DNA from: Methanobacteriota archaeon
GTDB lineage: Archaea; Thermoplasmatota; Thermoplasmata; SG8-5; DAIRED01
Reading direction: 5' to 3'
Assembly (NCBI GenBank): GCA_043799545.1
Contig: JAZDNO010000015.1
Location: forward strand, 1 to 19,882
DNA: 19,882 bases
Shown here: positions 1,435 through 12,891 of the stretch, one piece after another
Numbering within the stretch: the first letter of the stretch is position 1
How the letters are laid out: the number at the start of each line of letters is the position of its first letter
Translations under genes and position numbers: made by a program
Notes under the pieces: model-generated
Told to the model about the DNA's origin: nothing
The model's database searches: none
Seen by the model: only the letters and a program-made list of their open reading frames with translations

Positions 1435-2001
1435 TCAAGGCACGAACACCGCAGCTGCCACCGTCGTCGTCCAGCAGCCCTTCTTATCGCCTATGGCGCT
1501 CTGCGTTATATTCGCGGTCTTCACGATGCGCCCGTCTATCTTGAATATCTCCTTCTTCGCGTCGTAGTGCTCGTCGAGGTCGAACTCTATCCCGTAGGTC
1601 GAGGACAGCATCTGAGCCGCCAGGTCTTCCGCGTAGTCGCCGTTCGCCTTCTCGGTCAGCCCGAACGAGTGGTGCTCGCTGAGGTAGCCATAGTGCTTCT
1701 CGTCAGCCGGAATCGCAATTCCTATAGAGGCGGCGACGAGGCGGTTCGGCTCGTTCGATGCGTTGTCGGCCATAACGCAGAATACGACCTGGCCAGCGTT
1801 CAACATGGACAGCCCCTTCTTGCGGGGAATAAGCTTGCACCCCGGGGGGTAGATACTCGACACCCGCACGAGGTTGAACCTCTCGATTCCTGCATCGCGC
1901 AGCGCCATCTCGAAGCTGCTGAGCTTCTCCTTGTGCCTTCCCGTTCCTTTGGTCAAGAAAACGTGCCGTGGCACGTTCCCATTTTCTATGTTCTGTTCCA
2001 T
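1435..2001 (-). CDS. pdaD: Pyruvoyl-dependent arginine decarboxylase
   Basis: SSFEMALRDAGIERFNLVRVSSI (self-cleavage Ser-Ser), YGYLSEHH, C-terminal WTTTVAAAVF. Tandem TGA TGA stops. Confidence 0.92.
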   Translation of the reverse strand: MEQNIENGNVPRHVFLTKGTGRHKEKLSSFEMALRDAGIERFNLVRVSSIYPPGCKLIPRKKGLSMLNAGQVVFCVMADNASNEPNRLVAASIGIAIPADEKHYGYLSEHHSFGLTEKANGDYAEDLAAQMLSSTYGIEFDLDEHYDAKKEIFKIDGRIVKTANITQSAIGDKKGCWTTTVAAAVFVP

Positions 2002-2487
2002 TCAAACACCTCTCTCTTCTTTTGAAGTATTGCCCTTTAATTTGGATCCCAGCCAGCCGATGCTAGTGGCCGCCCTGTCGTCGAATTGCGGAACGTACGG
2101 CTTGATGTCCAAGAGGGGCGTCCCGTCCAACACGTCCAGGCCCTCTACGTCCAGAACGTTGCCCTTGCGCGAAACAAGTTTGACCGTCGAGAGTCCGATT
2201 CGATTTGGCCTCTGAGGAGACCTCGTGGCGAAAACACCGCGCGGCACGTCGTCCAAGAAAGGTTTGACCATGAGGGGCTCGTCCTTGCTCAGATGGAAGC
2301 GGTAGAGAATAGTGATGTGGGAGAAGCCATCTAAGTTACTCAGACCGTCAGCGTACCTCTCGAACACGATAATCCTCCCCTTAATCTTTGAGAAACAAGC
2401 TTGTATTGGGACATCTTCAGGCCTTTTGAGAGGAGACTCTATCGTTCCTATGCTGTAAACCTCGAATGCTGCTTCCTCATTTACCAT
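2002..2487 (-). CDS. tsaA: TrmO/TsaA (YaeB/AF0241)-family SAM-binding protein, short form
   Basis: IGTIESP, GFSHITILYRFH, RGVFATRSPQRPNRIGLS, LDVLDGTPLLDIKPY. Confidence 0.9.
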   Translation of the reverse strand: MVNEEAAFEVYSIGTIESPLKRPEDVPIQACFSKIKGRIIVFERYADGLSNLDGFSHITILYRFHLSKDEPLMVKPFLDDVPRGVFATRSPQRPNRIGLSTVKLVSRKGNVLDVEGLDVLDGTPLLDIKPYVPQFDDRAATSIGWLGSKLKGNTSKEERGV

Positions 2488-2902
2488 CCAGGAACCTCCA
2501 TCCGCGCCTTTTCGCGCAGTCGGCTATTGCGCATCTCAGCGCTGTGATGCAAAGGGTCGCGCAGTGCTCGTGCCCTTCCGGCAGGCCGCCCAGCGCGCTG
2601 ACGATTGCCTCGGGGCGCAGGTTGAAGGCGTCCATGATAGTCTTCCCCTCGGCCAGACGGGTCGTGGCGCTGCCGCACGCGAGCGTCACTGCACACCCAT
2701 TCGCTTGAAAGCAGACCTTACTGATTGCGTGGCCATCCGCTTTGACATAGAACGTCATAGTGTCGCCGCACGGCCCCGTGAAAATGGATTTGCCGTCGGC
2801 GTCGTCCATCATTTCCATATTCCTGGGATTCGTCGCCTCCTCTATCAAGATACGAGATATCCCTCGGAAAGCGTGGCTATCTTCCAGCCTGTCAACGATC
2901 AT
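2477..2902 (-). CDS. iscU: IscU/NifU-N-type Fe-S scaffold
   Basis: NPRN, GPCGD, NGCAVTLACGS, LGGLPEGHEHCA; the three conserved Cys are present. Confidence 0.85.
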   Translation of the reverse strand: MIVDRLEDSHAFRGISRILIEEATNPRNMEMMDDADGKSIFTGPCGDTMTFYVKADGHAISKVCFQANGCAVTLACGSATTRLAEGKTIMDAFNLRPEAIVSALGGLPEGHEHCATLCITALRCAIADCAKRRGWRFLDGK

Positions 2903-3758
2903 TAAGCATCTCCTCGACGCGCTTCCAGGCAGTGGACAGCGCTTTGGCCAGCGTCGTTTCCGGGTACTCCGTGACCGGGCGTCCCTCGACTATTGCCCTG
3001 GTAGCTACGTCGTCGTATGGCAGTTCGCCGATGACCTCTATCCCTTCGGTGGCACAGTATTTCCTCACCGACATGACATTGTCCGCGTTCACGTCCGACT
3101 TGTTTATCAGCACGCTGGCTTGCACGTGGAAATGCCTCGCGACATCGACCATCCGCCTTCCGTCGTGGATGCTGGACAGCGTCGGCTCCACGACGACGAT
3201 GGCCATTTTCGTACCGCCAATCGCCGCTATGACGGGGCACCCAGTGCCCGGCGGCCCATCTATTATAATCGTGTCCCGGCCGCTCTCTCTTGCAAGCCGC
3301 CTGGCGTTCTCCCTCACGAGCGAGACGAGCATCCCGGACGCCTCCTGGCCCGGGTCGAGAAGCGCGTGTGACATCGGGCCGAAGCGCGTCTCGGAGACGT
3401 ACGCCTCGCCGACAACTCTGTCGCTCATCCATATGGCTCCGACTGGACAGACGATTGTGCAAACGGCGCATCCCTCGCACCTGTCCCTGTGAATTGCGAA
3501 CGATTTGTCGATGGCTCCGAACCTGCATGCTTCCAGGCACTTGCCGCAATTGACGCACTTTGAATCTTCCTTGATGGCCGCTTTCATACCGTAGAACTTG
3601 GTACGGCCCTTGATCGTCGGTTTAAGCACCATATAGAGGTCCGGGGCGTCGACGTCCGCGTCAGCGAAGACCGCTCCCTTCGCTAGGGCCGCGAACGCAG
3701 CCGCGACCGTCGTCTTGCCAGCTCCGCCCTTCCCGCTTACAATCACCAGCTCCTTCAA
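2892..3758 (-). CDS. MinD/CobQ-superfamily P-loop ATPase with inserted 2x[4Fe-4S] ferredoxin domain (copy 2)
   Basis: The true start is probably TTG at 3758 (MKELVIVSGKGGAGKTT), with a TTGA overlap onto the upstream stop. Motifs DADVDAPD, CVNCGKCLEAC, CEGCAVCTIVCP, DGPPGTGCPV. The ORF-track extension to 4292 is an out-of-frame overlap. Confidence 0.9.
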   Translation of the reverse strand: MKELVIVSGKGGAGKTTVAAAFAALAKGAVFADADVDAPDLYMVLKPTIKGRTKFYGMKAAIKEDSKCVNCGKCLEACRFGAIDKSFAIHRDRCEGCAVCTIVCPVGAIWMSDRVVGEAYVSETRFGPMSHALLDPGQEASGMLVSLVRENARRLARESGRDTIIIDGPPGTGCPVIAAIGGTKMAIVVVEPTLSSIHDGRRMVDVARHFHVQASVLINKSDVNADNVMSVRKYCATEGIEVIGELPYDDVATRAIVEGRPVTEYPETTLAKALSTAWKRVEEMLNDR

Positions 3759-4612
3759 AGTGCCCCCTCCCCAATAACAGCGAAAAGGAGGCTCTCGAAG
3801 ACCTTTGCGATTTCCGGCAGGTCGCCGACGAGCGTCTTCCCGTTCGAATACAGTGTGGCTATGCGCCTGTCGTTCGGTATCCTCGCAAGGATGGGAATCC
3901 CTTCCGTGGCGCAATACGCCTCGACCGAGCCGTCGCCCAGCCCGTCCCTGTTGATGACGACGCCGAACGGAATCTTCAACCCCCGCACGACCGCTATGGC
4001 AATTTTCAGATCCCCCAGGCCGAACGGCGTCTGCTCCGTGACGAGGATGCAGCGGTCGGCGCCGCGCAAGGTCTCGACGACGGGACACGAGGTACCTGGC
4101 GGAGCGTCCAGGATAGTCAAGCCGGTAGGGTCGGCCATCTTCTTCAACTCCCTGATTATCGGTACGCCTGTCGGCTGCCCGACGTCGAGCGTCCCCTGCA
4201 GAAGGGTCACGCCTTCCGACGCTCCTCGCTCGATCACCCCCAGGCGCTTGCCAGTTTCCACGATAGCACTTTTCGGGCACACCATCTTGCACCCGCCGCA
4301 GCCGTGGCAGAGGTCACCAAAGAACAGATGCTGTTTGCCCACCACGGCGATGGCGTGGAACCTGCAGAACTCCGCGCACTTGCCGCACCTGGTGCATTTG
4401 TCCATGTCGAAGACCGGTATCGGTTTGGTGACTTCGCGGACGGACTCCAGCTTGGCCTTCAGGAAGATGTTGCAGTTAGGCTCCTCGACGTCGCAGTCGA
4501 CGAGTGCGACCCCGCCCGAAGCTGACTTGGAGAGGCTGGCCGTCAGGGCGAGATTCACGGCGACGGTTGTTTTACCGGTCCCTCCCTTGCCGCTCGCAAT
4601 CACGATATTCAT
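3755..4612 (-). CDS. MinD/CobQ-superfamily P-loop ATPase with inserted 2x[4Fe-4S] ferredoxin domain (copy 1)
   Basis: SGKGGTGKTT, DCDVEEPN, CTRCGKCAEFC, CHGCGGCKMVCP, DAPPGTSCPV. Confidence 0.92.
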   Translation of the reverse strand: MNIVIASGKGGTGKTTVAVNLALTASLSKSASGGVALVDCDVEEPNCNIFLKAKLESVREVTKPIPVFDMDKCTRCGKCAEFCRFHAIAVVGKQHLFFGDLCHGCGGCKMVCPKSAIVETGKRLGVIERGASEGVTLLQGTLDVGQPTGVPIIRELKKMADPTGLTILDAPPGTSCPVVETLRGADRCILVTEQTPFGLGDLKIAIAVVRGLKIPFGVVINRDGLGDGSVEAYCATEGIPILARIPNDRRIATLYSNGKTLVGDLPEIAKVFESLLFAVIGEGAL

Positions 4613-4613
4613 T

Positions 4614-5402
4614 TCAGCTTCCCCTCCTGGCAGTGACTGCAGGCCTTCTCATCCGTGTCTGAAAAACGTCCATTGGCTCCACTCTCGGAGCTTTGCCAAC
4701 GCAATCGTAGACCATGCGCACGTTCAGCCCCTTGAACGGAAGCGACAGCTTCCTCATGACATCCATTCCCAGCGGCTTCGCCGCGCATGGCCGAAGCGGC
4801 GTGTTGAGATGCACTTCATCGGGCAGGATATCGTGTGCCAACCTAGCAATCTTTTCAGTATATCTCATGTTCTGCCCGATGAGCATCACGTCGAGGGCAA
4901 GGGATCCACTGTACATCTCCCGGAATCTCTTCAGGCCAACGACCATGGTCTCGAAATCAATCCCCTTTGCCGGGCGATTGATTTGCTTGAAATGCCCCTC
5001 GGAATCCGCATCGAGCTTGGCCACCACGATGTCGAAATCCAAAAGGCCTTCCCTGACCTCCACATCGGCCATCATGGAGGAGTTCGTCAGCAGGGCGGTA
5101 GGGGCCTTCAACATTCTCTTGATGGCTCTGTGCGCGTCGGGCAGGTTTCGTGCCAGAGTTGGCTCCCCGGTCCCCGAAAACGTCACGACATCGTACCGCA
5201 CGGAAGCGCCGAGCGCCTTTAATTCGGCCTCCATTTGGTCTAGATCGACGAAGTTGCCGCGCTCTGTGGTGTGAATGCCGGTTCTGCCCAGCTGGCAGTA
5301 CGTGCAATCGAAGGAGCAGCGCTTGTCCCTGCTGCACAACAGGTCGACTCCTAAAGATCTGCCAAGGCGCCAGGAAGGCACGGGGCCGTAGACGATGCTC
5401 AA
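4614..5402 (-). CDS. Radical SAM protein (COG0731-like, uncharacterised)
   Basis: YGPVPSWRLGRSLG N-terminus, CSFDCTYC (CxxxCxxC), TFSGTGEPTL, LLTNSS. TTG start with GGAGG upstream. Confidence 0.9.
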   Translation of the reverse strand: MSIVYGPVPSWRLGRSLGVDLLCSRDKRCSFDCTYCQLGRTGIHTTERGNFVDLDQMEAELKALGASVRYDVVTFSGTGEPTLARNLPDAHRAIKRMLKAPTALLTNSSMMADVEVREGLLDFDIVVAKLDADSEGHFKQINRPAKGIDFETMVVGLKRFREMYSGSLALDVMLIGQNMRYTEKIARLAHDILPDEVHLNTPLRPCAAKPLGMDVMRKLSLPFKGLNVRMVYDCVGKAPRVEPMDVFQTRMRRPAVTARRGS

Positions 5403-5444
5403 GATGGAGCCTCCGTTCCATCGCGCTTTACATCAAATCTGTAC

Positions 5445-6050
5445 TCAGCCGTTTTCATCCCCCTCTGCTGCCTCCTTCAATCTTTTTTGATAGTACCCTG
5501 AATAGATGGCTCCCAAAGGATTGTGGGCGAGAACCCTGTCCTTCACTGCAATGGTCGTGACGGGTGCGTTTGAGTGTTTCGTGAACAGGATGTCGTGCCC
5601 GATGCACAGCCCCAGGATGATGTTGAGGTCTGTTTGCGCGTCGTTGAGGACATGCGCCTGCCACATGGGATTGCAGATGGCCTCGACGCCATCTCTCTCG
5701 GGGTGAAGCTGCGTGACCTTGAACCGCGATTTATCCATTCCGCAGACCTTGCAGCACACCGAATGCGTTTCGAAGCCCTTCTCGAGGATGCCGTGCAGAA
5801 CCCGGGCCTCCTTCTCCAGCCCGATGCAGAAGGCGATCCCGAGGCGCTTGTGTCCCATGCGCCGGGCGAATATTATCAACTCCTCAATTCGAGTTTTTTT
5901 CATATAGTACTTCGCCTCGATCTCCGAAGATGTCCGCAATGTTTGAAGGTCGATGCCAGTGTACACCTTGGCGGCATCCTCACCGCTTCCGGTGCAGTCC
6001 TTTCCTTTGTAGCAGTCCTTATGATCACACAAAGCGCACTTCATAGTCAT
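5445..6050 (-). CDS. DUF1847 Cys-rich metal-binding protein
   Basis: TRIEELI.FA..MG.KRLGIAFCIGL, SVCCKVCG, ICNP..QA..LN, LGLCIGHD, VKDRVLAHNP. ATG 6044 is an alternative start. Confidence 0.88.
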   Translation of the reverse strand: MTMKCALCDHKDCYKGKDCTGSGEDAAKVYTGIDLQTLRTSSEIEAKYYMKKTRIEELIIFARRMGHKRLGIAFCIGLEKEARVLHGILEKGFETHSVCCKVCGMDKSRFKVTQLHPERDGVEAICNPMWQAHVLNDAQTDLNIILGLCIGHDILFTKHSNAPVTTIAVKDRVLAHNPLGAIYSGYYQKRLKEAAEGDENG

Positions 6051-6100
6051 CAGTCATCCTCACAGCATATGCGACAGCCATCCTGCGATACGCAGAGCCA

Positions 6101-7447
6101 TCACCTCATGTTCTTCAGCGCGAGTTCTGCAGCGTTGACCAGCTGGTAGGCGATCGGGGAAGCGGTCACCGCAGGGTGAGTTCCTATCTGGAACGTTGCG
6201 ATGTCATCAGCTGTCATCTTGTTCTGTATGCATGCGCTGATTGTGTTGATTAATTCGCCAGCGCTCGGCCCGCCTCTTACGGCACCGCCCACCAGCTCGC
6301 CGTTCGCCTTGTTGAATACGAGCTTCACCCACATCTTTGACATGCCAGGCATCCCTCCCGGGTGTCTGTCTGGAGCCTCCGCTTCGCCGGCGACCACCTC
6401 GAAGCCGCAGCTCCGGGCGCCTTTCTCGCTCATGCCAGCCATGGCGACTGTGAGCCCTCCCAGCGCAGTGGAAAACACCCCGACGACCCCCGGATTCTTC
6501 CGGCGGGTGTTGTACAAGTTGGCTCCAGCGATTCGCGCCTCCGTCGTGGCAATCGATGCGAGCCTGAGCCCCGACGGCTGCCCCGTGAAGAACGAGAACT
6601 TGGTGGCGCAGTCGCCGCACGCGAAGATGCTCGGGTCCGACGTGCGCATGTTCGTGTCGACGACTATGCCGCCCTTGTCGACAGCGAGCCCCGCGTTTTT
6701 GGCCAGCTCGACGTTCGGCGTCACGCCTATCCCCACGATAAGGACATCTGCCTTGATTTCACGCCCGTCTCCGAGCTTGACGCCGGTGACCGCATCCTTC
6801 CCGAGGACTTCGACCAGCTTCGCGCCAGTGATGACGTTTATCCCCTTGGAAGAGAGGTCTTGCTCGACCTCCTGGCAGCACTTGCACACTTCCTCGCCGA
6901 ATGCGATTTGCAGGCAATGGTTAAGCATCTCGATGACGGTCACGTTCACGTTGCGGCCCTTCTTGCACTCGTCCGCCAGTTCGACGCCGATGAACCCGCA
7001 TCCGAGGATGACGACGTCCTTCGCCCCATCCACGGCCGACATGACGCCGCGCAGGTAATCCACATCCTTCTGGATGCAGAAGACGTTCTTCTTGTCGATC
7101 CCGGGTATCGCCGGAACGAGCGGCTTCGAGCCAGTGGCTAGGACTAGCCTGTCGTACGCCACGACCTCGCCGCTATCGAGGGTCACCGTCTTCTTCGACG
7201 GGTCGAGGGTCTTCGCCCCATCGACTGCGAGCTCTATCCCAGCCCCCGTCACCGCCGCGTCTGGTATCAGGTTGTTCTCCGGCTTCCCCACGGTCCCGAA
7301 GATGTAAGGGATGCCGCATGGTATCAGCACCTGTTTCTCCTTCCTCACTACCATGACGCTCTTGTCTGGGTAGTGCCTGCGCGCCGTCATCGCTGCGGGT
7401 ACACCCGCAGCGCTTCCGCCTATGACAACAATGTCAGCGTTCTTCAT
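6101..7447 (-). CDS. FAD-dependent pyridine nucleotide-disulfide oxidoreductase (NADH oxidase/CoA-disulfide or persulfide reductase family)
   Basis: VVIGGSAAG, redox Cys in IPCGIPY, LVLATGS, ILGCGFIGVE, TSDPSIFACGDC, C-terminal dimerisation domain. AGGAGGG is spaced correctly for ATG 7447. Confidence 0.92.
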   Translation of the reverse strand: MKNADIVVIGGSAAGVPAAMTARRHYPDKSVMVVRKEKQVLIPCGIPYIFGTVGKPENNLIPDAAVTGAGIELAVDGAKTLDPSKKTVTLDSGEVVAYDRLVLATGSKPLVPAIPGIDKKNVFCIQKDVDYLRGVMSAVDGAKDVVILGCGFIGVELADECKKGRNVNVTVIEMLNHCLQIAFGEEVCKCCQEVEQDLSSKGINVITGAKLVEVLGKDAVTGVKLGDGREIKADVLIVGIGVTPNVELAKNAGLAVDKGGIVVDTNMRTSDPSIFACGDCATKFSFFTGQPSGLRLASIATTEARIAGANLYNTRRKNPGVVGVFSTALGGLTVAMAGMSEKGARSCGFEVVAGEAEAPDRHPGGMPGMSKMWVKLVFNKANGELVGGAVRGGPSAGELINTISACIQNKMTADDIATFQIGTHPAVTASPIAYQLVNAAELALKNMR

Positions 7448-7485
7448 TTTCATCCCTCCTTTTCACTTTCACCCAGCGGTCCCCT

Positions 7486-7845
7486 TCAATGCTGGTGCTC
7501 CTTGCAGGCGTTCTCATCAGTCGCGACCTGCAATTTTTTAGCCTTCCAAAGTTCGATAGTATTTCTAACTGTCCCTTGAGCGCCGACATAAACTTCTATA
7601 CCATAGCCCTCAAACATGGTTATCGCCCGCGGGCCCAGTCCGGAACAGAGCAGCACATTCACGCCTTCCTTTGCAAGGTGCTCCGGCGGTTTACCGACGC
7701 CGCCCATGTGCTCGCTGGTGTTCCGAACGACGCGGACCTTGTTGGTCTCCGTGTCCACCAGCGTGTACGTCGGGACGCGCCCGAAGTGATCCCCTACCTG
7801 CTCGTCCAGTCCCTTGTCTCCATTTGTGGGTACTCCAATTATCAT
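7486..7845 (-). CDS. NifB/NifX-family (FeMo-co-binding fold) protein 1
   Basis: GLDEQVGDHFGRVPTY, CSGLGPRA, C-terminal ACKEHQH. Confidence 0.9.
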   Translation of the reverse strand: MIIGVPTNGDKGLDEQVGDHFGRVPTYTLVDTETNKVRVVRNTSEHMGGVGKPPEHLAKEGVNVLLCSGLGPRAITMFEGYGIEVYVGAQGTVRNTIELWKAKKLQVATDENACKEHQH

Positions 7846-7858
7846 ATTATCCCTCCAT

Positions 7859-8209
7859 TCACATTGATGTCGCGTTTCTACTAATTTTTACGGTTTCGGT
7901 GCTGGTGCAGCGCTCCACCGCCTCGCGGACGGAGCCCTTCGCCCCGGTGACTATCTTCACGCCCGAGCCTTCTAGCATCTTCATCGCGTGCGGGCCGACC
8001 TCGCCGGTCAGTATCGCGTCGGGCTTGAGGTCCAGCGCACCCTGCGCGGCCGCGACCCCCGCGCCGCCAGTGGCCTTCGTACCTGGATTCTCTACAGATG
8101 TCGCTGCCATCGTCGAGCTATCGACCACGACGAAAAACGGGCACCTCCCGAACCTTCCGTCCACTTCTGCATCGAGTCCCCTGTCCTTTGCCGTAACCAA
8201 TATTTTCAT
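7859..8209 (-). CDS. NifB/NifX-family protein 2
   Basis: GLDAEVDGRFGRCPFF, NPGTKATGGAGVAAAQ, LTGEVGPHA. Confidence 0.9.
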   Translation of the reverse strand: MKILVTAKDRGLDAEVDGRFGRCPFFVVVDSSTMAATSVENPGTKATGGAGVAAAQGALDLKPDAILTGEVGPHAMKMLEGSGVKIVTGAKGSVREAVERCTSTETVKISRNATSM

Positions 8210-8252
8210 TTCGCCTCACCTCTCGCTTCTAGTGCGCTCCAGCCCCATCATC

Positions 8253-8414
8253 TCAGGGCTCCTCGTCACGGGCCATCGTGTGCCCGCACTTCGGGCATTC
8301 CTGCCTTAAACATGGCACCCCCCGCTTGTGAGGCTGCCTGTGCCCGCACTCGGGACAGACGCACTCGCCGCCGGGGCCCTTCCCCTTGCCAATCTCTTCA
8401 ATCTTTCTTGCCAT
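8253..8414 (-). CDS. 53-aa double Cys-knuckle (putative Zn/Fe-binding) microprotein
   Basis: [53 protein letters not shown]. It overlaps the end of mrp. ATG 8426 is an alternative start; the ORF-track start at 8537 is unlikely. Confidence 0.75.
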
Positions 8415-9240
8415 TTCCGCCACCATCTTTATTGAACGCAACCACTCCATCGACGATTCCAGAAAACGCTTTGACGGTCGAAGGGCAGTTCGTCTTCCTC
8501 GTAACGAACGGCACACCGTCGTCGCCGCAATCGACAATCGACGGCTCTATCGGTAAACGACCTAGGAACGGCACGCCCATCTGCTTTGCCGCGGCCTCGC
8601 CCCCGCCGACCTTGAACAGGGCGATGCCCTTGCCGCAATGAGGGCAGGTCAATCCGGCCATGTTCTCGACGATGCCCATTACGGGCATCCCGAGTTGTCT
8701 GGCGAACGTTACGGTCTTCCGCGCATCGAGAAGGGCGACCTCCTGGGGCGTCGTAACGATAATTGCCCCCGCGCCGGGCACCTGCTGGGCGATGCTCAGA
8801 GGCTCGTCGCCGGTTCCAGGCGGCAGGTCGACGATTAGGTAGTCGAGTTTTCCCCACTCGACATCGCCGAGGAACTGGTTGATGATGCTCATCTTCATCG
8901 GACCTCGCCATATGACCGCGGCGTCCTCGCTGTCGAGCACGAACGCCATCGACATCACTTTCAGTCCTGGCCTGACTTCGATTGGCTGCATCCCGCCCTC
9001 TCCCTGGGTGACCTTGGAGCGCCCGACCCCCAGCATCTTCGGCACGTTCGGGCCGTGGATGTCGGCGTCGAGCAGGCCGACCTTGAACTTTTTTGCAGCC
9101 AGGGCGAACGCCAGGTTCGTCGCTACAGTCGTTTTACCGACGCCGCCCTTGCCGCTCATCACGACCACCTTGTGGCCGATGTTATCCAGGTTTTTCTTGA
9201 TTTTTCGTTGGGTTTCGACCGCATCAGCATTGCCGTGCAA
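8398..9240 (-). CDS. mrp: Mrp/NBP35 (ApbC) Fe-S cluster carrier ATPase
   Basis: [54 protein letters not shown] start with GAGGAG upstream. Confidence 0.95.
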
Positions 9241-9266
9241 AGTATTCGCTCTCCTCGAAGGCCTGA

Positions 9267-9629
9267 CTACTTGTCTTCTTTCTGCAGTTCTTTGAGCCGG
9301 TCTTTGACCCCGTTGAGGTCGTTCTCTAGCGCCTTCACGGCGTCTTCCAAGTATGCCTTCTCTTCCTCCTTGGTCGGACCCCTGTAAGGTACATATGGCT
9401 CGTCGTAGACGTGCATCGGCTGCGCTGGTCCGAACCGCCTTGGCCCGAAGCCCATGCCGAAACCACGGCCCCTTCCGAAGCCGCGTCCCATGCCGAAACC
9501 CATCCCTCGGCCCCTGCCTCGGGCGGGCCCGCTAGCATATCCTGGCGCCGGGTATCCGGCGCAGTATCCTCGATTCCTACCTGTCATCGGGCCCTCTCCG
9601 TCGGGACCCGTTCTATCTCCTCTTGGCAT
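9267..9629 (-). CDS. DUF5320-family Gly/Arg-rich protein
   Basis: [32 protein letters not shown] repeats, C-terminal coiled coil ([18 protein letters not shown]). Confidence 0.9.
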
Positions 9630-9678
9630 TGTAATTTCCCTCCTATTTCTTCTTCGATTTCTTTTACCACTTCATTTT

Positions 9679-9801
9679 TCATGGGTGGCATATTTTACAC
9701 TCATGAATTTTATGGGATGTACCATCCTTGTGTAAGCAACTGTCTCCCACATGTTTATGATCCTTACACTCAGGATTCGTGCATTTTTGTTCTATAGCCA
9801 T
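9679..9801 (-). CDS. Unannotated 40-aa Cys/His-rich microprotein (metallothionein-like or Zn-finger-like)
   Basis: Manual translation gives MAIEQKCTNPECKDHKHVGDSCLHKDGTSHKIHECKICHP, with 5 Cys and 6 His. GAGGTGA lies 7 nt upstream of the ATG. It is co-oriented and fills the gap between DUF134 and DUF5320. Confidence 0.72.
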   Translation of the reverse strand: MAIEQKCTNPECKDHKHVGDSCLHKDGTSHKIHECKICHP

Positions 9802-9844
9802 GTCGGTTTCACCTCTATTTTTCTCTCAATTAAACGAAACCGCA

Positions 9845-9976
9845 TCAGCAGCTTCCCTTTTTTCCACCTTTCTTCTTTCCTATTCCTACACCAGAAGAGC
9901 TTCCCTTACCTTGTCCTCTTCCGTCTCTTGCTCCTTTTGAGCTATCCCTTGGTCCTTTTCCATCTTTCTTTGGCAT
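9845..9976 (-). CDS. Possible independently initiated 43-aa DUF5320-like peptide, in frame within the DUF134 ORF
   Basis: MPKKDGKGPRDSSKGARDGRGQGKG...KKGSC. It has its own GGGGAGTGA SD and the same ACAATGCCA start context as the genes at 9629 and 10747. Confidence 0.45.
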   Translation of the reverse strand: MPKKDGKGPRDSSKGARDGRGQGKGSSSGVGIGKKKGGKKGSC

Positions 9977-10315
9977 TGTTATTTCACTCCCCTTTTCTTT
10001 TACTTCTGTCTGGCTGACGCGGTAGTCTAGGCCCACGATCTCGAGCGCGCATCCGTTCACAAGTGCGTGAATTACTTTCTTTCTGGCGCTCTCCAGGTCG
10101 TTCCAGAAGCTGCGGCGCGATATGCCCATCTTGACCGCGGCCTCCTCCTGGGTGAGCCCTTCAAGGTCCACCAGCCTCAGCGCCTCGAGTTCCACGAAGC
10201 TCAATTCTATGACTTCCATGAACCTCATCGGGACTCCAGCAGGCTTGTAGTAGGTGACCTCGGGAACGTTTTCTATCCATCTCGGGGACCTGTGTCTTCC
10301 GCGTCTGCATTCCAT
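9845..10315 (-). CDS. DUF134 (UPF0251) predicted HTH DNA-binding protein with a C-terminal Gly/Lys-rich extension
   Basis: YYKPAGVP, ELEALRLVDLEGLTQEEAAVKMGISRRSFWNDLESARKKVIHALVNG. Start placed at ATG 10315 because a TATA box (TTTAAATA) lies ~25 nt upstream; ATG 10327 is an alternative. Confidence 0.88.
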   Translation of the reverse strand: MECRRGRHRSPRWIENVPEVTYYKPAGVPMRFMEVIELSFVELEALRLVDLEGLTQEEAAVKMGISRRSFWNDLESARKKVIHALVNGCALEIVGLDYRVSQTEVKEKGSEITMPKKDGKGPRDSSKGARDGRGQGKGSSSGVGIGKKKGGKKGSC

Positions 10316-10323
10316 AATTCTAC

Positions 10324-10393
10324 ACATATGAGAGAAAGTATTTAAACTTATTGCCGATTTGAGCAATAAATCTATGCAATCCGAATTTTGCAT
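10324..10393 (-). promoter_or_regulatory. DUF134 operon promoter: TATA box plus two adjacent palindromes
   Basis: TTTAAATA on the minus strand (10338-10345); TTATTGC-N8-GCAATAA (10348-10369); ATGCAA-N8-TTGCAT (10374-10393). Confidence 0.7.
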
Positions 10394-12312: not shown

Positions 12313-12750
12313 TCAATCATACGATTTCCGAATCGATTCGTTTGACAACGTGGGCTTGATGATTTCCTGCCAATCTGCAGACTCCCATGTTCCCAGTTTA
12401 CTGTGCGTCGTATAATATTTTTGAGGTATCGGATGGGTTCCTATCACCACAGGTATCCCGTATTTCTTCTCGATGAAATTTTTAAAATGTGCAATATTCG
12501 GGCACGGCGGATATCCGACGACAAACCCGGTTGCAAGATGGATTGCTTTCGCCCCGTTCTTTATCATTTCTTCCGGAGCGCACTCGACATTCCCGCCTGG
12601 ACACCCCCCGCATGAAGTGTACCCGACTATTTCTAGTGGCTCTTCTTTCTTGTAAATGCTGAAAGCTCCCTCTCGATTCTGCATTGCCCTGAAGCATTTA
12701 CCGCCTGCACAAGCGTGATAACGATCGCAAATGATTATTCCGATTTTCAT
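12313..12750 (-). CDS. CGGC-domain protein
   Basis: MKIGIIICDRY..CAGGKC, SCGGCPG, IHLATG...GYPPCP, VVIGTH. ATG 12750 has an AGGAGA SD. Confidence 0.9.
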   Translation of the reverse strand: MKIGIIICDRYHACAGGKCFRAMQNREGAFSIYKKEEPLEIVGYTSCGGCPGGNVECAPEEMIKNGAKAIHLATGFVVGYPPCPNIAHFKNFIEKKYGIPVVIGTHPIPQKYYTTHSKLGTWESADWQEIIKPTLSNESIRKSYD

Positions 12751-12891
12751 TGTATTATCTCCTGATTTCATATCACGCGTGGCCGCGCTGTTTGGATGGG
12801 GCTGGCAGGTGCCTGGAGCGCCGATTCGTCAATTGTTTTATTGCCATCGCCTCATAGTAATCCATTGCGGGAATATAAGTTTTCTCTGAAG

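Follow-up and report, generated by a model that had tools for sequence, protein, structure and literature searches.

What occupies the short gap between a DUF134 gene and a DUF5320 gene in an archaeal metal operon, and, if it is a gene, what might its product do? We examined this question in a window of 19,882 nucleotides (the whole stretch of DNA analysed here, contig JAZDNO010000015.1 of assembly GCA_043799545.1) from a member of the Thermoplasmatota. An earlier note had proposed that the gap holds a hidden Cys/His-rich peptide, separately acquired and akin to the metallothioneins. Our overall reading, held with somewhat better than even confidence, is that it encodes a metal-site mini-domain that would work with the DUF134 protein and was brought into the operon on a short cassette.

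Genomic setting

Read along the minus strand, the operon runs from a ferritin-like gene of the EncFtn/EncB type through DUF134, the microprotein gene, DUF5320, Mrp, a small Cys zinc-ribbon protein and two NifX-like genes. It continues with a flavin disulfide oxidoreductase, DUF1847, a radical SAM protein, two MinD-ferredoxin ATPases, IscU, a TrmO-like gene and PvlArgDC, and genes for DtxR-FeoA and FeoB lie near it (Table 1). DUF134 is single-copy in this 2.06-Mb genome. The best NCBIfam model for Mrp is MrpORP (NF041136, 2.9e-110, below the equivalog cut-off). Functional studies of DUF134, UPF0251 or DUF5320 were not found in the literature.

Table 1. Features of the window around the microprotein gene
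Feature	Position	Strand	Detail
DUF134 (PF02001), helix-turn-helix core	9977..10393	minus	E 3.4e-23; Sigma70_r4_2 at 1.4e-6
Direct repeat of 45 nt, upstream copy	9951..9995	minus	leader and first codons of the 43-codon piece; 73% identical to 9604-9648
Cassette of 347 bp with foreign codon usage	9649..9995	minus	GC3 0.27 and 0.34, against 0.62-0.79 in most operon genes; repeat spacing 347
43-codon piece like the DUF5320 N-terminus	9845..9976	minus	in-frame fusion to DUF134 here; GC3 0.27
Shine-Dalgarno sequence GAGGTGA	9809..9815	minus	7-nt spacer to the microprotein ATG
Microprotein CDS	9679..9801	minus	40 aa and TGA; ATG 9801-9799, TGA 9681-9679
Core of the microprotein family			C12, H15, H17, C22, H24, KDGT25-28, H30, K31, H33; accessory trio C7, C35, C38
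Direct repeat of 45 nt, downstream copy	9604..9648	minus	leader and first codons of DUF5320; 347 nt from the other copy
DUF5320 (PF17253), next operon gene	9267..9629	minus	E 6.6e-25
Mrp/NBP35 Fe-S carrier ATPase	8398..9240	minus	PF10609, 2.9e-99
Small Cys zinc-ribbon protein	8253-8429	minus	C-V-C-x2-C-G...H...G-x-P-C...C-x2-C; overlaps the 3' end of the Mrp gene

A short gene under selection

The ORF is co-oriented with both of its flanks, DUF134 ending at 9845 and DUF5320 starting at 9629, and has no in-frame start further upstream. Its translation agrees letter for letter with the one quoted in the earlier note, and the Shine-Dalgarno sequence and the alignment with the operon stand as described there. 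Five Cys and six His together account for 11 of the 40 residues (27%), spaced C7-x4-C12-x2-H15-x-H17-x4-C22-x-H24-x5-H30-x2-H33-x-C35-x2-C38-H39. By itself, an ORF of 40 codons is within chance (84 ORFs of at least 30 aa occur in 6 kb). This one is raised above chance by homologues at E 1e-12 to 1e-15 in a search against 5.8e9 proteins and by a dN/dS of 0.06-0.20 (Nei-Gojobori, six informative pairs), the pairs differing by up to 13 synonymous as against 8 non-synonymous substitutions. Since the exact protein sequence was not found in a collection of 15 billion proteins, gene callers passed over it both in this assembly and in its congener.

Our searches brought together 14 distinct homologues, each 29-43 aa long (alignment A4), from two related genomes, nine metagenome loci and six database proteins, a small family that includes several close relatives and about seven independent contexts. 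The congeneric genome G001 carries a copy, 88% identical, in the same place. A phmmer search over 1.8 billion representative proteins returned two short relatives, to which a profile search added four and a metagenome scan the nine loci. All members share the core H-x-H-x4-C-x-H-K-D-G-T-x-H-K-x-H, with H15, H17, C22, H24, K25, D26, G27, T28, H30, K31 and H33 invariant across the alignment and C12 replaced only once, by His. An objection named in advance, that homologues with conserved Cys and His might be lacking, fails because such homologues exist.

The conservation could in principle reflect an RNA or DNA element rather than a protein, the ORF then being a chance frame or a non-coding spacer. 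Its very short length, its omission by gene finders and the unusual nucleotide conservation of the adjoining spacer and 43-codon piece among three close genomes would all suit this explanation. Within the ORF, however, synonymous changes per site far exceed non-synonymous ones, and the protein motif persists although the DNA has diverged, on contigs that range over 34-56% GC. The ribosome-binding site and start are also conserved, with a GGTGA core about 7 nt before the start in G001, L053, L054, L055, L056 and L058, and Rfam gave no match for the region at E <= 1. As far as sequence evidence goes, the non-coding explanation is refuted, and we consider it barely credible; the ORF is almost certainly a real gene, and its family is under strong purifying selection.

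Beyond the congener, no copy was found in about 400 genomes of the class and about 400 more of the phylum, and a scan of genome contigs likewise returned the microprotein from the congener only. Viral contigs held no copy. Fused or longer forms were not detected at E <= 0.1 among proteins of 77-2000 aa, a weak search with a crowded candidate list. The rarity of the family is probably overstated because small ORFs are under-called.

Predicted fold and metal site

Comparison with known families and folds yielded no assignment. Pfam had no match to the window microprotein at E <= 0.1 and, for all 14 members at E <= 10, a single chance match to DUF7565, while NCBIfam gave one chance match (E 0.04, far below its cut-off). 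A sequence profile of the family searched against the PDB reached a best E of 2, and an ESM Atlas search a best score of 0.86, to unnamed clusters. Structural comparison gave a best E of 1.1 with Foldseek against the PDB and a best Z of 2.7 with VIA-align wide, in both cases from a small model of moderate confidence. The microprotein represents a new, previously unnamed family of tiny His/Cys-rich proteins that are likely to bind metal.

AlphaFold models of the window protein (a long form) and of one short form place the same three strands at residues 15-18, 21-24 and 29-31. Confidence is moderate (mean pLDDT 71 and 69, respectively; pTM 0.39) and peaks at residues 21-30, around the K-D-G-T turn (pLDDT about 82). 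Judged from the strand register, H15 and H17 would face C22 and H24 on one side of the first hairpin. We propose that the microprotein folds as a three-stranded beta mini-domain, which one or two metal ions would hold together. A primary His-rich site would form between the H-x-H of strand 1 and the C-x-H of strand 2, with C12, H30 and H33 taking part. C7 is present in all 10 members that have C35 and C38 and in only one of the four that lack them. This joint occurrence in 10 members suggests an optional second site, and in the long forms C7/C12 and C35/C38 might provide a second, Cys-type clasp. That the microprotein binds metal is quite likely; the metal would most likely be Zn, with Fe, Ni or a small Fe-S cluster as other candidates.

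Metallothioneins, the bacterial SmtA and BmtA among them, and His-rich Ni-storage peptides (Hpn) are small, rich in metal ligands and found in metal-related contexts, and SmtA also uses His ligands. The microprotein resembles them in its size, its ligand content and its setting, and a largely unstructured peptide that buffers or stores several Zn, Cu, Cd or Ni ions for the operon's proteins would be in keeping with a cluster that encodes DtxR-FeoAB, a ferritin-like protein, Mrp and IscU. It differs from them in that Cys is scarce and mostly unconserved. Metallothioneins typically hold about 15-30% Cys in conserved CxC, CC or CxxC arrays, whereas here Cys makes up 5 of 40 residues (12.5%), CxC and CC arrays are absent, only C22 is invariant and only C12 nearly so, and four of the 14 members, the short forms, have one to three Cys. 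The invariant part consists instead of five His, one Cys and the K-D-G-T turn; the fixed spacing and the invariance of the non-ligand residues K25, D26, G27, T28 and K31 fit a defined fold. No metallothionein model in Pfam or NCBIfam matched even at E <= 10, and the gene is tightly linked to a regulator gene, not to transporters. The label of metallothionein-like peptide was therefore not borne out. Since the spacing is rigid and a beta mini-sheet is predicted, we favour a folded metal-site domain over a thiolate-cluster sponge, and we regard a buffering role as improbable.

Among known small metal proteins, the closest kind are the archaeal zinc-finger micro-proteins, which have fewer than 70 aa and paired Cys knuckles, many of them binding one Zn and some having regulatory roles (PMC6562870, PMC11241148, PMC10716476, PMC2253796). 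They include the C(P)XCG proteins of Haloferax volcanii and Brz of Halobacterium salinarum, a small zinc-finger protein whose gene adjoins the gene that it regulates (PMC2253796). The microprotein is likewise archaeal and, at 40 aa, falls within their size range (up to 70 aa), but it lacks the C(P)XCG motif. Its pairs C-x4-C and C-x2-C carry no P/G signature and are optional, the second being missing in four of the 14 members, and its invariant ligands are five His and one Cys. No NCBIfam model matched it, that of the HVO_2753 family included.

A second comparison is offered by the small Cys zinc-ribbon proteins of the same operons, which are of similar size. Their module starts with C-x2-P-x-C and continues with a His and Gly-x2-Cys. 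We found it again at six or more related loci (alignment A5), where it is frequently preceded by a DUF5320-like or Gly-rich N-terminal part, and the window protein scores below the cut-off of every Pfam and NCBIfam model. The H-K-D-G-T-x-H-K-x-H segment of the microprotein has no counterpart there, and homology between the two families is not detectable (hhalign of A4 against A5, 4.6% probability over 8 aligned columns). Both families are present in one locus, L059.

With the ZAS anti-sigma factors the likeness lies in gene arrangement only, a small Zn-type gene standing directly downstream of, and co-oriented with, a gene for a sigma-70 region-4-like helix-turn-helix protein. The ZAS motif is H-x3-C-x2-C, whereas the microprotein has H-x-C-x2-C (H33, C35, C38), and this is itself absent from the short forms. 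Moreover, no anti-sigma domain was found by Pfam in the microprotein, DUF134 is no sigma factor, and the organism is an archaeon.

Linkage to DUF134 and an ORP-like gene cluster

In five of seven distinct contexts, counted over the two genomes and the nine metagenome loci with the database members P0002-P0007 left out, DUF134 is followed directly by the microprotein gene at a distance of 12-142 nt. One is the lineage of the window, G001 and L052. The others are L053 (GC 0.52, 142 nt), L054 (GC 0.44, 38 nt), L056/57 (GC 0.51, about 50 nt) and L058 (GC 0.45, 38 nt). In the remaining two contexts DUF134 is 1-4 kb away. At L059/60 (GC 0.34) the microprotein gene is directly behind a short DUF5320 gene and DUF134 follows 1.06 kb further on, and at L055 (GC 0.53) DUF134 lies 4.2 kb upstream. 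L059/60 is archaeal by its TBP and S17e genes, and is the only metagenome contig so shown.

The genes that recur around the microprotein are DUF5320, ORP-type Mrp, NifX-like genes, MinD-ferredoxin ATPases, radical SAM and DtxR-FeoAB, and the wider set of the window is found again at L054 and L055 (PvlArgDC, TrmO, radical SAM, MinD-ferredoxin, NifX, DtxR-FeoA and FeoB). At L056/57, in contrast, DUF134 and the microprotein form a pair alone, and none of the Mrp, NifX and MinD genes occurs within 5 kb of it. From the comparison of loci, including this stand-alone pair, DUF134 emerges as the sole constant neighbour of the microprotein. At L056 (4609-5111 and 5669-8568) the pair is convergent with an unrelated cluster that encodes an ArsP-type permease, a DsbD-like protein, thioredoxin-like proteins and a ferredoxin. 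The microprotein of the pair is of the short kind, lacking the C-terminal C-x2-C, and the same regulator pair may control a different regulon here.

A Desulfovibrio complex offers a point of reference for the surrounding genes. The 'orange protein' (ORP) complex includes a NifX-like protein (Orp8), MrpORP (Orp9) and the MinD-like Orp3/4, which carry two [4Fe-4S] motifs (PMC6345978). The minus-strand gene set at 1435-10393 of the window, with its MrpORP-type Mrp, two MinD-ferredoxin ATPases and two NifX-like genes, parallels the Desulfovibrio ORP genes and extends them by IscU, radical SAM, DUF1847, TrmO-like and PvlArgDC genes, an extended set seen again at L054 and L055. By gene content, the clusters around the microprotein are ones of predicted Fe, Fe-S or NifX-like cofactor handling, resembling the Desulfovibrio ORP gene set.

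Such a setting raises the alternative that the microprotein is a small carrier of an Fe-S cluster or cofactor in an ORP-like line, passing it between Mrp, the MinD-ferredoxin ATPases and the NifX-like proteins independently of DUF134. The operon holds the partners that this would call for, namely MrpORP-type Mrp, IscU, two MinD-ferredoxin ATPases, two NifX-like proteins and a radical SAM protein. In addition, PMC6345978 cites a report (its reference 23) of [2Fe-2S] binding by a small Cys-rich protein that an ORP operon encodes. We nevertheless consider a carrier role unlikely. The partners are missing from L056/57, where the microprotein is paired with DUF134 alone, typical Fe-S ligation would need more Cys than the short forms possess, and there is no detectable homology to the operon's own Cys zinc-ribbon family.

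The radical SAM gene, which belongs to the cluster in the window, L054 and L055, likewise suggests that a Cys-containing peptide of about 40 aa could be the precursor of a SCIFF/ranthipeptide-like RiPP modified by that enzyme. The enzyme shows only the PF04055 core and weak, sub-threshold NCBIfam matches, with no SPASM-type maturase model, and no radical SAM gene is present within 5 kb at L056/57 or L059. Furthermore, the invariant residues of the microprotein are His rather than Cys/Ser/Thr pairs, its whole length is conserved and hence shows no division into leader and core, and no NCBIfam peptide-precursor model matched at E <= 1. A RiPP precursor is accordingly very improbable.

How close the tie of the microprotein to DUF134 may be is also reflected in the phylogeny and domain structure of the DUF134 proteins. 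In the DUF134 tree, five of the six members of one clade (100/100 support) are linked to a microprotein, and the proteins of the window, G001 and L053 nest apart from that clade, among their order relatives. At L059 (6152-6628, plus strand) we also identified a DUF134 protein whose C-terminal part, attached by a Gly-rich linker, is a Cys zinc-ribbon of the type encoded at 8253-8429 of the window. Read from predicted domains, this fusion is a Rosetta-stone tie between DUF134 and the clusters' small Cys proteins, and a precedent for a regulator joined to a small metal module. In the window, DUF134 has a Gly/Lys-rich tail and is then followed by a separate Cys/His module, the microprotein. Most DUF134 genes have no such partner, none having been found in about 800 other Thermoplasmatota genomes, so the microprotein would be accessory at best to DUF134. 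The adjacency could also mean that the microprotein is co-expressed with all genes of the cluster and has no specific tie to DUF134.

A cassette behind a native DUF134 gene

The locally AT-rich patch described in the earlier note is real, with GC of 0.37-0.40 in 120-nt windows across 9640-9879 as against 0.53-0.68 in the flanking genes. The microprotein ORF itself has a GC of 0.39 and a GC3 of 0.34, compared with a GC3 of 0.62-0.79 in 16 other operon genes, and the same divide separates it and the 43-codon piece before it from the DUF134 core (0.69) and DUF5320 (0.66). The low GC3 is not due to amino-acid composition, because codons redrawn for the same residues from operon usage give an expected value of 0.73, and 20,000 simulations never reached the low value observed; an origin in the Lys, His, Cys and Ile codons could thus be ruled out. 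The sole other low outlier nearby is a CGGC-domain gene (12313-12771, minus strand; GC3 0.47), possibly another late arrival.

The foreign codon usage coincides with a cassette bounded by a 45-nt direct repeat and present in three genus-level genomes (the window, G001 and L053). It consists of a leader, the Gly/Lys-rich 43-codon piece resembling the N-terminus of DUF5320, and then the microprotein gene between two spacers, the second of them conserved and rich in purines. In 20 genomes of the same order, no small Cys/His ORF is found between DUF134 and DUF5320, and the two genes abut. Together with the native position of the local DUF134 in the tree, the other linked DUF134 proteins forming a separate clade, these features support well the earlier proposal that the microprotein was acquired separately into a metal operon. 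We propose that recombination placed the cassette at the 5' end of DUF5320, immediately after the native DUF134 gene. Its source may have been a lower-GC donor, from which the microprotein gene would have landed again right behind a DUF134 gene; we infer this donor step from the codon usage and the tree.

Parts of the cassette show conservation of their own. The 43-codon piece, which is a separate ORF overlapping the DUF134 stop in G001 (L002 1011-1488), is nearly invariant in DNA among the three genomes, synonymous sites included. This exceeds the conservation of the microprotein gene, and suggests either extra constraint at the nucleotide level or recent gene conversion. The spacer after the microprotein stop (9630-9690, minus strand) is purine-rich and near-identical in the three genomes, reading ATGAAGTG and then AAAAGAAATCGAAGAAGAAA. 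The frame through it to the DUF5320 start varies among them and is open in frame in L053 only, so this spacer is conserved as DNA or RNA and not as protein.

The 43-codon piece ends in Gly-Ser-Cys, at the point where the operon's Cys zinc-ribbon would begin. We considered whether the piece and the microprotein are the halves of a split Cys zinc-ribbon gene, and rejected this on the hhalign result given above and on the reading frame, which runs through from one to the other in G001 only and not in the window or L053.

A possible role with DUF134

We propose that the microprotein and DUF134 together form a module in which the former would act in trans as a metal-binding sensor or cofactor, coupling the cluster's transcription to the metal or redox state. 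That the microprotein works with DUF134 at all has, from the comparison of loci, about even or slightly better chances. The more specific reading that we prefer, in which it is a sensor acting through DUF134, is tentative. More doubtful still is a particular form of it, drawn by analogy with the anti-sigma arrangement, in which the microprotein would be a metal- or redox-responsive partner, either a sensor subunit or an antagonist, that switches the DNA binding of an otherwise sensor-less DUF134.

DUF134, DUF5320 and the ORP-like clusters of Mrp, NifX and MinD-ferredoxin genes are widespread in anaerobes, and their function is still unassigned. The gene described here is a clean case of a selected microprotein overlooked by gene callers, and the way in which its 347-bp cassette entered an existing operon can be traced in detail. 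Its strictly conserved and unusual His5-Cys site behind DUF134 is readily accessible by peptide synthesis, and could reveal the metal or signal of the regulon. If true, the switching of DUF134 by the microprotein would provide a first mechanistic handle on DUF134 and on the control of archaeal ORP-like metallocluster operons.
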